Part shown: positions 36,128 to 38,782 of the stretch, one piece after another
Position numbering within the stretch: position 1 is the stretch's first letter
Layout: each line of letters begins with the position of its first letter
DNA from: an uncultured Chloroflexia bacterium
Lineage (GTDB): Bacteria; Chloroflexota; Anaerolineae; Anaerolineales; Anaerolineaceae
Assembly (NCBI GenBank): GCA_963757065.1
Contig: CAVWQC010000002.1
Coordinates: 296,040 to 360,039, forward strand
DNA: 64,000 nt
Reading direction: 5' to 3'
The notes under the pieces: model-generated
Database searches by the model: none
The model's input: only the letters and a program-made list of their open reading frames with translations
Told to the model about the DNA's origin: nothing
Program-made: the position numbers and the translations under genes

Positions 36128-37010
36128 TTGAAACCAAATCTCTTAAAAGCGATCTTAAAGACTATGCGGCCAAAACAGTGGCCGAAAAATGTGGTAATTT
36201 TCGCTGCCCTCATTTTTGACCGCCAACTTACAAACTGGACAGCATTATTGAATGCTACTGCCGGTTTTGTCATTTTCTGTTTAATTTCCAGTTCGGTGTA
36301 TATCATTAACGACCTGGTCGATGTTGAAGCTGATCGCCGTCACCCGGATAAGAAAAATCGACCCATTGCGTCTGGCGTGCTGCCAGTATCCAATTGCACT
36401 TATTTCTGTAATTATCCTGATCCTGGTCATTTTCCCTTTGGCTTATCTCCTTTCCCCAACATTTGCCCTGATCGGATTTGCGTATTTCCTGATCAACCTG
36501 GCTTATTCGTTCTGGTTGAAACATATACCACTGGTGGATGTATTAATCATCGCCGCTGGTTTTGTATTAAGGGTGGCTGCTGGCGTAATGCTCATTCAAG
36601 TGGAACGTTTCTCCCCCTGGTTATATGTGGTTACCACCCTGCTCGCTTTATATCTCGGTTTTGGCAAGCGTCGCGCTGAGTTGGCTCTCCTGGCTGATGG
36701 AGCATATTCACACCGCAAGGTATTGGATGGGTACACCATTCCATTTCTGGATCAGTTGATCACGATTGTCTCCAGCACAACTGTTGTTGCCTACAGCTTA
36801 TATACATTTTCTGCCCCCAATCTACCCGAAAACCATACCATGATGTTGACGATCCCATTCGCATTGTATGGAATTTTCAGGTATCTTTACCTCATCCAGG
36901 TGAAAAATTATGGCGGCGCGCCCGAAGAGATGCTTTTTACTGACCGCCCCCTTCAGATCTCGATCCTCCTATGGGGATTATCAATCCTGGCGATTTTCTA
37001 TATATTTTAA
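36128..37010 (+). CDS. UbiA-superfamily polyprenyl-phosphate phosphoribosyltransferase-like protein (Rv3806c/DPPR-synthase type), one frameshift as sequenced
   Basis: ORFs 36128..36679 and 36321..37010 are one gene. MRPKQWPKNVVIFAALIF..., NDLVDVEADRRHPDKKNRPIASGVLPVS| then shifts to |IALISVIILILVIF... Extra C in 'tatCCaatt' (36390-36391). TTG start at 36128. Confidence 0.8.
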
Positions 37011-37011
37011 T

Positions 37012-37962
37012 ATGCCTGCCATCTCTGCTTCCTATCCCGGCAAGGTTATCCTTTTTGGTGAACATGCTGTGGTGTATGGCAGTCACGCGATTGCTATTCC
37101 AGTCAACCAGGTTCATTCCCACGCTGTAATTACCCCGGCAATAGGTTCTTCGCCAGGTAATATCAGCATCATCGCTCCGGATATTAACCTTCATCAAGAT
37201 CTCCAATCGCTCGATGACAACAACCCACTTGCATTCGCCATACGCACTACTTTGCGAAAGTTAGGTGTATCCAGATATCCTGCCTTTACCATTCGGATCA
37301 CATCAGATATCCCGATAGCGTCAGGCATGGGTTCGGGTGCATCCATATCCTGTTCCATAGCAAAAGCAGTTTCCACCTTCCTCGGTAAACCATTCTCAAC
37401 ACTTGAAATATCCGAGATCTCTTTTGAAGTGGAAAAGCTTCACCATGGAACACCATCCGGAGTTGACAATACTGTTATTGCTTTCAATCAACCAATTGTG
37501 TTCAAACGTGGTGAACTTTCAGTTAAGCTGCAAACCGGGGTGAAACTTCATTTCGTGATCGCCGATTCAGGAATCAAATCGTTAACCGCTCAAGCTGTGG
37601 GCGCTGTGCGATCGAAAAGGGAACAGGATAAATCTCACTTTGACGACCTGTTTCAAGCGATCGACCAGGTCGTTATGAATGCTTTGGACGGTTTTAGATC
37701 GGGAGACACTCGTAAAATCGGCAGCTTGATGCAGGAAAATCAGGAATTATTGCAGCAAGTGGGAGTATCCAATCCCATCCTCGAAAAACTCATTTCAGCA
37801 GCTATTAATTATGGAGCGTACGGAGCCAAGCTCTCCGGAGCTGGCATGGGTGGAAACATAATCGGACTCGTTCCAGCTGAGCTTATTGGAGACATCGAAA
37901 CGAGTTTATTACAAGCAGGAGCAGTATGGGTTATTCATACAACTCTGGAGATGGACAATTAA
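37012..37962 (+). CDS. mvk: Mevalonate kinase
   Basis: ATG 37012 (MPAISASYPGKVILFGEHAVVYGSHAIAIPV), GHMP motif DIPIASGMGSGAS, KLSGAGMGG. The track ORF start at 36910 overlaps the ubiA-like gene and is not used. Confidence 0.85.
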   Translation: MPAISASYPGKVILFGEHAVVYGSHAIAIPVNQVHSHAVITPAIGSSPGNISIIAPDINLHQDLQSLDDNNPLAFAIRTTLRKLGVSRYPAFTIRITSDIPIASGMGSGASISCSIAKAVSTFLGKPFSTLEISEISFEVEKLHHGTPSGVDNTVIAFNQPIVFKRGELSVKLQTGVKLHFVIADSGIKSLTAQAVGAVRSKREQDKSHFDDLFQAIDQVVMNALDGFRSGDTRKIGSLMQENQELLQQVGVSNPILEKLISAAINYGAYGAKLSGAGMGGNIIGLVPAELIGDIETSLLQAGAVWVIHTTLEMDN

Positions 37963-37977
37963 AAAGGCAAAGTTCTG

Positions 37978-38782
37978 ATGGCTGATTCAATAACGTATTT
38001 GAAACTCGGCGGTTCCCTGATCACAGATAAAAACCAGCCGTATTTTGTTGAACAATCTACACTTGACAGAATTTCCTCTGAGATCAGCCGGTTTTTGTGT
38101 GAAAATCCTACTGATAAACTGATCATCGGGCATGGATCCGGCTCGTTTGGACATACAAGTGCGACCAAATATCCACACTCTTCAGGGTGTGAGCACAAAG
38201 GAAGAATGGATCGGATTACAGAAAGTATGCTATGATGCCCGTTCTTTAAACCAGTTGGTGATGCAGTCCCTGCAGAATGCGAATGTTCCTGCCGTCTCCT
38301 TCCCCCCTTCCACACAGGTTACAGCATCAAATCGTGTCATCCAAAAATGGGATATTTCACCTATTCAAACTGTCCTTGATCATCATCTTGTACCGGTCAT
38401 CTTTGGGGATACGGTGTTGGATACATCCATCGGAGGAACCATTTTATCCACTGAAGAGTTGTTTATCCACTTAGCCCGGCAACTAAGGCCTTCCCGAATA
38501 CTCCTGGCTGGAGTTGAAGATGGTGTTTGGGCGAATTTTCCTTCCCGGGACAAACTGATCGACAGAATCTCACCAGCTAACTACCCATCGATCAAAGCAC
38601 AAATAATGGGATCGGTTTCCACCGATGTCACCGGTGGAATGACCACCAAGATCGAAAAGATGTTAACACTTTTGCATGCTTATCCGGAAATTAATATTCA
38701 AGTTTTTTCGGGTACCAAAATCAGTTCCATTTATTCTGCACTATCCGGAAATATTTTTGGTACGTTGATCAGTAATAATTAG
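37978..38782 (+). CDS. Isopentenyl phosphate kinase (amino-acid-kinase fold), one frameshift as sequenced
   Basis: ORFs 37978..38235 and 38132..38782 are one gene. YLKLGGSLITDKNQPY...KLIIGHGSGSFGHTSAT| then shifts to |NIHTLQGVSTKEEW...VPVIFGDTV...TDVTGGM. One extra base around 38165-38170 ('accAAAtat'). Confidence 0.8.

Follow-up and report, generated by a model that had tools for sequence, protein, structure and literature searches.

In a 64,000-nt stretch (the window) of a metagenome-assembled genome from the family Anaerolineaceae (Chloroflexota, order Anaerolineales), with 9 contigs, 3.36 Mb, and 44% G+C, we find what is probably a conserved housekeeping operon that joins an enzyme for a ribose-lipid donor to two mevalonate kinases. 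The leading gene belongs to the Rv3806c family of polyprenyl-phosphate 5-phosphoribosyltransferases (PPPRS) and is followed on the same strand by mevalonate kinase (MVK) and isopentenyl phosphate kinase (IPK), two of the three reading frames being interrupted in this copy by what look like errors of the assembly. We hold this reading as a whole with good, though incomplete, confidence. By homology, PPPRS would be a nine-helix membrane enzyme that moves 5-phosphoribose from phosphoribosyl pyrophosphate (PRPP) to polyprenyl phosphate at the cytoplasmic face. Dephosphorylation and flipping would then give polyprenyl-phospho-ribofuranose, from which a GT-C glycosyltransferase outside the cytoplasm could take the sugar. 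MVK and IPK each account for a step in the Chloroflexi-type mevalonate route, the source of the isoprenoid units from which those same carriers are built. The features that carry this reading are as follows.

36128..37010, + strand: Rv3806c-family PPPRS gene, UbiA-like, 293 aa when read without the extra base at 36389 (NF008977, NF008978, 8j8j alignment)
36389, + strand: single-base insertion interrupting the PPPRS frame, most likely an assembly error (comparison with congeners)
37012..37962, + strand: MVK gene, 316 aa (TIGR00549; Pfam GHMP_kinases_N and GHMP_kinases_C)
37978..38782, + strand: IPK gene, 267 aa after frame correction (NF040647; Pfam AA_kinase)

An earlier reading of the window, made from the letters alone (the sequence-only reading), had assigned the UbiA-like product to the Rv3806c family on two motifs. 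Both of them, RPKQWPKN and NDLVDVEADRRHPDKKNRPIASG, are present in the open reading frame (ORF) starting at 36128, and the Pfam matches across 36128-38782 are UbiA, GHMP_kinases_N/C, and AA_kinase. Family scores were taken on the frame-corrected 293-aa translation, which reaches 268.3 bits with NF008977 (cut-off 234) and 238.7 bits with NF008978 (cut-off 207), both models bearing the name "decaprenyl-phosphate phosphoribosyltransferase". Other UbiA families give 51.9 bits (prenyltransferase PRK12884), 36 bits (haem o synthase), 28 bits (UbiA), and 25 bits (ChlG) on the same protein. The translation also aligns over its full length with the Mycobacterium tuberculosis Rv3806c structure 8j8j (E 1.4e-44, residues 3-286 against 11-295). 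In Rv3806c, N73 and D77 serve Mg2+, R22, K87, R90, Y138, and K143 serve the pyrophosphate, and K28 and Y70 serve the 5'-phosphate, in a phosphoribose-binding site that is not conserved in classical UbiA enzymes (PMC10994848). The window protein keeps all nine of these residues, and none of them varies across 35 Chloroflexota homologues. A further 5'-phosphate contact, Y157, is Phe in the window protein, a replacement that also occurs in some mycobacteria (PMC10994848). The distance in score and the retention of the PRPP-binding residues thus bear out an Rv3806c-type assignment over a quinone, haem, or chlorophyll prenyltransferase. In a tree with the genome's own UbiA paralogues as outgroups, Rv3806c falls among the Chloroflexota homologues. 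That placement is the only readable part of the tree, in which branches are saturated (length about 10) and one long branch is misplaced.

The claim that MVK and IPK belong to an alternative mevalonate route holds as well. MVK scores 244.4 bits with TIGR00549 (cut-off 163) and the frame-corrected IPK scores 189.9 bits with NF040647 (cut-off 120). Elsewhere in the genome are a decarboxylase of the MDD/PMD family (C2:208488-209375, TIGR01240 269.6 bits), the sequence of which does not tell a mono- from a diphosphate substrate, and an HMG-CoA reductase (C7:187511-188620, PF00368 370.7 bits). This set of genes fits the archaeal-type MPD/IPK pathway known from Chloroflexi such as Roseiflexus castenholzii (PMC3857490, PMC6107057), whose genes are dispersed over the genome, as they are here. 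Unlike in those accounts, MVK and IPK are adjacent to each other with PPPRS ahead of them, an arrangement that we did not find mentioned there.

The sequence-only reading overlooked a one-base insertion in the UbiA-like gene and another in IPK. The PPPRS reading passes from frame 1 (36128 to about 36388) to frame 2 (about 36390 to 37010), which leaves the overlapping ORFs 36128-36679 and 36321-37010; the IPK reading switches at ~38172, between the ORFs 37978-38235 and 38132-38782. Against two congeneric genomes, the extra base in PPPRS is a single T at 36389, GTA[T]CCA, and the IPK break is likewise one extra base at ~38172. Neither base is found in those two genomes, where both genes are intact. 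Of 7 congeners, 6 have an unbroken PPPRS gene; in another low-contig congener, G006, it is split at a different residue. Alignment of the window with a congeneric genome (G003) gives a single colinear block of 63.8 kb at 87.6% identity, with 36 net frame-shifting indel clusters. Some 22 of these clusters break an ORF in the window, and at each of them the G003 ORF is long and intact and the change is a net insertion in the window. The genes hit include ORFs of 941 aa and 1414 aa, one 259-aa gene is struck four times, the gene for an epimerase of the short-chain dehydrogenase/reductase (SDR) type 3 kb upstream is broken likewise, and three of the six UbiA-family genes of this genome are split. 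Because such a one-sided excess, at roughly one insertion per 3 kb, fits an unpolished long-read assembly and not gene decay, the breaks at 36389 and ~38172 are almost certainly single-base insertion errors of the assembly rather than marks of pseudogenisation, judging from the related genomes. A programmed frameshift was ruled out, as both sites lack the extra base in the congeners and about 22 similar insertions occur elsewhere in the window. For the annotation of this assembly, split genes should accordingly be suspected as insertion errors first and not as pseudogenes.

We note that both insertions create the hexamer TATCCA (36387-36392 and 38170-38175), which has 70 matches in the window where shuffles lead one to expect 42 (largest shuffle 62). 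The excess could reflect a systematic basecalling context or chance. As a shared error motif it was set aside, a third nearby break, at 33191, having another context.

We then asked of two samples, 41 genomes at the level of the order and 201 evenly sampled Chloroflexota genomes, how general the gene order is. A strong PPPRS-family match (E 1e-49 or better) is present in 39 of the 41 genomes, 34 of them over the cut-off. MVK lies directly 3' of PPPRS on the same strand in 30/30 loci and in 76/76 further loci with enough flank, about 106 in total. The junction often overlaps by a few bases, so that stop and start codons overlap; 5 of the 76 loci fell outside a strict gap filter, and only for the reason that the two genes overlap or stand 152 nt apart. 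In the window, the UbiA-frame stop TAA at 37008-37010 is separated by 1 nt from the MVK ATG at 37012, and the MVK end at 37962 by 15 nt from the IPK ATG at 37978, both gaps being as the sequence-only reading had given them. IPK comes next after MVK in 38 of 70 loci. Across the phylum the picture is different. PPPRS occurs in 135 of the 201 genomes and a cut-off-level MVK in 46, every one of which is PPPRS-positive, and 89 genomes carry PPPRS and no MVK at that level. The two genes adjoin in 20 of the 46 MVK-positive genomes, all 20 coming from the two sampled Anaerolineales families and one further family of the class, and are unlinked in the other 26, which cover three other families of the class and all other classes. 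The PPPRS-MVK pairing is therefore a stable trait of one order, and neither the phylum nor the enzyme family as a whole shows it; within Anaerolineales it is a fixed and probably translationally coupled gene order. The coupling of carrier synthesis to carrier charging that had been read into this locus is, on these counts, a lineage-specific gene order.

The genes around the three, and the more distant block that had been proposed as user of the donor, are listed here.

35244..36050, - strand: TlyA-family rRNA 2'-O-methyltransferase gene, divergent from the PPPRS gene
38796-39950, + strand: dGTP triphosphohydrolase (dGTPase) gene (NF002326, 483 bits), order kept in relatives
39969-40439, + strand: GreA gene, order kept in relatives
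18694..33482, - strand: envelope-glycosylation (GT-C/YYY) block, given as context; several of its genes are frame-broken in the window

Tight spacing of PPPRS, MVK, and IPK stands, but a unit that ends at IPK does not, for dGTPase follows 13 nt on and greA another 18 nt on. The same-strand unit is thus one of five genes, PPPRS-MVK-IPK-dGTPase-greA, the last two of which are unrelated to isoprenoids. No plus-strand terminator-like site was found in 35900-40700, and dGTPase and GreA are probably in the same transcription unit as the first three genes. TlyA and PPPRS share an intergenic region of 77 nt (36051-36127), and an Rfam scan of the window gave no match. A divergent TlyA gene stands upstream of PPPRS in 64 of 75 loci. 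In 20-kb views, the wider gene order is the same across the family: DprA-ManC-TopA-membrane protein, then GreA-dGTPase-IPK-MVK-PPPRS, then TlyA-LepA and, further along, SDR-GT4-methyltransferase-GT-C. It erodes in other families, where the divergent TlyA and the PPPRS-MVK pair stay. The membrane protein of this order, between greA and topA (40507-41619, - strand, 370 aa), is conserved without a Pfam or NCBIfam match and is syntenic through the family at 39-93% identity.

Several points weigh against the reading that we prefer. Q135, which contacts the ribose O3 in Rv3806c, is Asn in the window protein and N, M, or Q among the homologues. The "equivalog" label of NCBIfam would extend to the Chloroflexota clade by homology only, and the assembly-error view likewise would stand or fall with the comparison to relatives. 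A phosphatase, a flippase, and a GT-C are all absent from the five-gene operon. Finally, since dGTPase and greA continue the unit, its close spacing is no proof of shared function. This last point leads to the strongest rival, namely that PPPRS and MVK/IPK are neighbors only through an inherited order in a slowly rearranging housekeeping region, with no functional coupling between them. Besides the continuation of the tight unit, the synteny of DprA, ManC, TopA, LepA, and TlyA around it across the family speaks for such a history, as do the 89 genomes with PPPRS and no cut-off-level MVK, the lack of linkage in 26 of 46 MVK-positive genomes, and the presence of IPK after MVK in little more than half of the loci. 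Set against this, PPPRS-MVK is the most persistent junction of all: none of the ~106 Anaerolineales loci lacks it, even where protein identity drops to 54% and the surrounding genes change, and the stop and start codons often overlap there. We consider the matter evenly balanced.

The other rivals to the ribose-lipid operon fare much less well. A Pfam UbiA match and an operon in common with isoprenoid-precursor genes are also what one would expect of a conventional prenyltransferase that uses a prenyl diphosphate for quinone, haem, or ether lipid synthesis and lies beside MVK and IPK as the consumer of their product; yet the best UbiA family other than PPPRS reaches 52 bits against 268 for NF008977, the 5'-phosphate binders K28 and Y70 are invariant, and five further UbiA-family genes in the genome are available for such roles, so that we find this reading very improbable. 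Slighter still is the chance that the breaks are real and that the organism carries PPPRS and IPK pseudogenes. The window sequence as given does hold both, but they are part of a load of all-insertion events that also strikes essential-looking genes (ORFs of 941 aa and 1414 aa) and hits one 259-aa gene four times, the congener copies are intact, and IPK is required for the sole isoprenoid route described for the clade (PMC6107057). As to the sugar, the sequence-only reading had the product epimerised to polyprenyl-phospho-arabinofuranose and fed into an arabinan-like polymer made by the nearby GT-C/YYY block. In its favor are the homology of the enzyme to Rv3806c, GT-C-type genes at a distance of 2.6-17 kb, and the co-occurrence of PPPRS with the DUF2298 family in the phylum that is described below (128 genomes with both, 7 and 7 with one, 59 with neither). 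However, a search of 41 genomes for the DprE1-type ALO domain (PF04030) found it absent from this genome and all 7 congeners and over the cut-off in only 4 of the 41 relatives, with Corynebacterium glutamicum, as a control, among the genomes registering a match. The arabinan reading fails because the genus is without a DprE1-like gene. In addition, the GT-Cs of the block (PMT, PMT_2, DUF2298), its Agl23-like partner, and the nearby ManC fit a polyprenyl-P-mannose or other hexose donor equally well, and the proximity to the block is gone in a sister family of the order. We therefore regard an arabinan as highly doubtful, whereas a ribofuranose donor is left standing and is the likelier of the two. 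Polyprenyl-P-ribofuranose is the default product of PPPRS enzymes according to Kelly et al. (PMC11127046), and a different pentose calls for extra epimerases, which are DprE1/E2 in the case of arabinose and a GalE-like SDR in that of xylose (PMC11127046). The SDR in the block is of a generic dTDP-glucose dehydratase/GalE-like kind, below every cut-off, and is uninformative on the type of pentose. Because the DprE1-type oxidase is absent, the sugar would probably remain ribose or be altered by another epimerase.

Comparison with known systems places the ribose-lipid operon between them. The closest match for the enzyme is Rv3806c itself, the UbiA/DPPR synthase of M. tuberculosis (8j8j) and first step of the decaprenyl-phospho-arabinose pathway. 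The two proteins are of the same length class and colinear over their full length, and they have in common the motifs RPxQWxKN, NDxxDxEADRxHPxKxxRP, and GKRxAEL along with the residues that bind Mg2+, pyrophosphate, and 5'-phosphate. They part at position 135, and the window genome has no DprE1 partner. The loci differ as well. Rv3807c, Rv3789, and genes of the Emb/Aft type are not seen as neighbors of the window PPPRS, which sits instead with mevalonate kinases; mycobacteria use the methylerythritol phosphate (MEP) pathway and are not known to have such kinases.

A polyprenyl-phospho-pentose donor outside Actinobacteria had been suggested for this locus, and such donors are already known from Gram-negative three-component pentofuranose systems, examples being the ORF15 PPPRS of Citrobacter youngae with a MATE flippase and a GT136 GT-C, and pilin arabinosylation in Pseudomonas aeruginosa (PMC11127046). 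The window gene resembles these in being a PPPRS homologue outside Actinobacteria with polyprenyl-P-ribofuranose as its predicted extracytoplasmic donor, ribose being the expected end product there if an epimerase is absent. It differs in that its 293-aa product has no fused HAD phosphoribose-phosphatase domain and in that no MATE/SMR flippase or GT136 GT-C is adjacent, its neighbors being TlyA, MVK, IPK, dGTPase, and GreA. Further, the genes of the three-component systems belong to variable O-antigen or pilin loci, whereas PPPRS here is a near-universal housekeeping gene of its lineage. Earlier work has established the enzyme family, how it works, and that it is used outside Actinobacteria (PMC10994848, PMC11127046), as well as the MVK/IPK route in Chloroflexi (PMC3857490, PMC6107057), and existing NCBI annotation models would name all three genes. 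In the literature searched, we found no description of the order-wide PPPRS-MVK operon or of a near-universal PPPRS alongside DUF2298 in non-Dehalococcoidia Chloroflexota, and no paper that ties a PPPRS enzyme to Chloroflexi.

The wider interest of the operon lies in the cell envelope. Chloroflexota have layered walls and no lipopolysaccharide machinery, and the composition of their envelope is poorly known (PMC13319060). From the near-universal presence of PPPRS in the non-Dehalococcoidia classes one would predict a pentofuranose donor linked to lipid and, with it, a surface polymer that bears pentofuranose; no such polymer was found described for Chloroflexota in the literature searched. The proposed user of the donor is the GT-C/YYY block, which contains an SDR epimerase/dehydratase, a GT4, a methyltransferase, a PMT_2 GT-C, a fusion of PMT and DUF2298, a second Chlor_Arch_YYY protein, and a weak Agl23-like protein. 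Its four large membrane proteins (18694-30425, - strand) are the Agl23-like protein of 567 aa, the Chlor_Arch_YYY/DUF2298 protein of 853 aa, the PMT+DUF2298 fusion, and the PMT_2 GT-C of 717 aa. The fusion has 1651 aa in G003, where the block copy is L045:2306-14047, and is split in the window. A PDB sequence search with the 717-aa PMT_2 and 853-aa DUF2298 proteins gave no solved relatives.

The evidence for a link between the block and PPPRS is mixed. The block does lie near the operon, with lepA and tlyA between them on the opposite strand, and it keeps that position within the family. The meaning of this nearness is what falls away, since the synteny holds at the level of the family and no longer in its sister family within the order; there and in other classes the block is hundreds of kb off or on other contigs. 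A polyprenyl-P-mannose donor would fit the PMT-type enzymes, the Agl23-like protein, and the nearby ManC as well. Co-occurrence is more suggestive. DUF2298 is found in 135 of the 201 Chloroflexota genomes, and in a two-by-two table that counts genomes and not evolutionary events, 128 have both DUF2298 and PPPRS, 7 have PPPRS alone, 7 have DUF2298 alone, and 59 have neither. The pattern is not mere possession of a wall, because many peptidoglycan-positive lineages are without both (179 of these 201 genomes have FtsW/RodA). It is strongly phylogenetic, one family having DUF2298 without PPPRS and another the reverse, and the Haloferax and Methanosarcina controls have DUF2298 without a strong PPPRS-family match (E at or below 1e-30). 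We accordingly treat a link between PPPRS and the GT-C/YYY block as a lead and not a finding, and one that is rather unlikely to prove right.

Even so, the co-occurrence offers a donor hypothesis for the uncharacterised DUF2298/YYY family, for which the literature searched yielded no functional study. Stated in full, and quite tentatively given how small a chance we allow it, PPPRS, Chlor_Arch_YYY (DUF2298), and PMT-type GT-Cs might form a housekeeping pathway of non-Dehalococcoidia Chloroflexota that decorates an envelope glycan or glycoprotein from polyprenyl-phospho-ribofuranose, with PPPRS translationally tied to MVK in Anaerolineales, which would raise the supply of carrier and its charging in step. 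Separately, in another Chloroflexota class MVK stands ~2 kb from DUF2298 genes, including one for a 2581-aa multi-YYY giant (L161:5245-10767 and L162:4381-19921). This vicinity was dropped as probably coincidental, with a GMP synthase between and a tRNA-modification gene on the far side of MVK.

Outside Anaerolineales, clustering of the PPPRS neighbors gave no partner common to several families. Pfam searches on 20 of these neighbors returned a Crp regulator, LPG_synthase_TM with a GT2, a PHP phosphoesterase (twice), LCP, a sulfatase, DUF4015, and housekeeping genes. One other Chloroflexota family has, in two genomes, a small PHP-domain phosphoesterase directly 3' of PPPRS (L151:7447-8100 and L152:5884-6612), which is a candidate for the phosphoribose 5-phosphatase of the missing step. 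In another family of the class Anaerolineae (L153:5143-8845), the PPPRS homologue is flanked by genes for a LytR-CpsA-Psr (LCP) ligase and a sulfatase-family protein, a setting that suggests attachment of a wall polymer.

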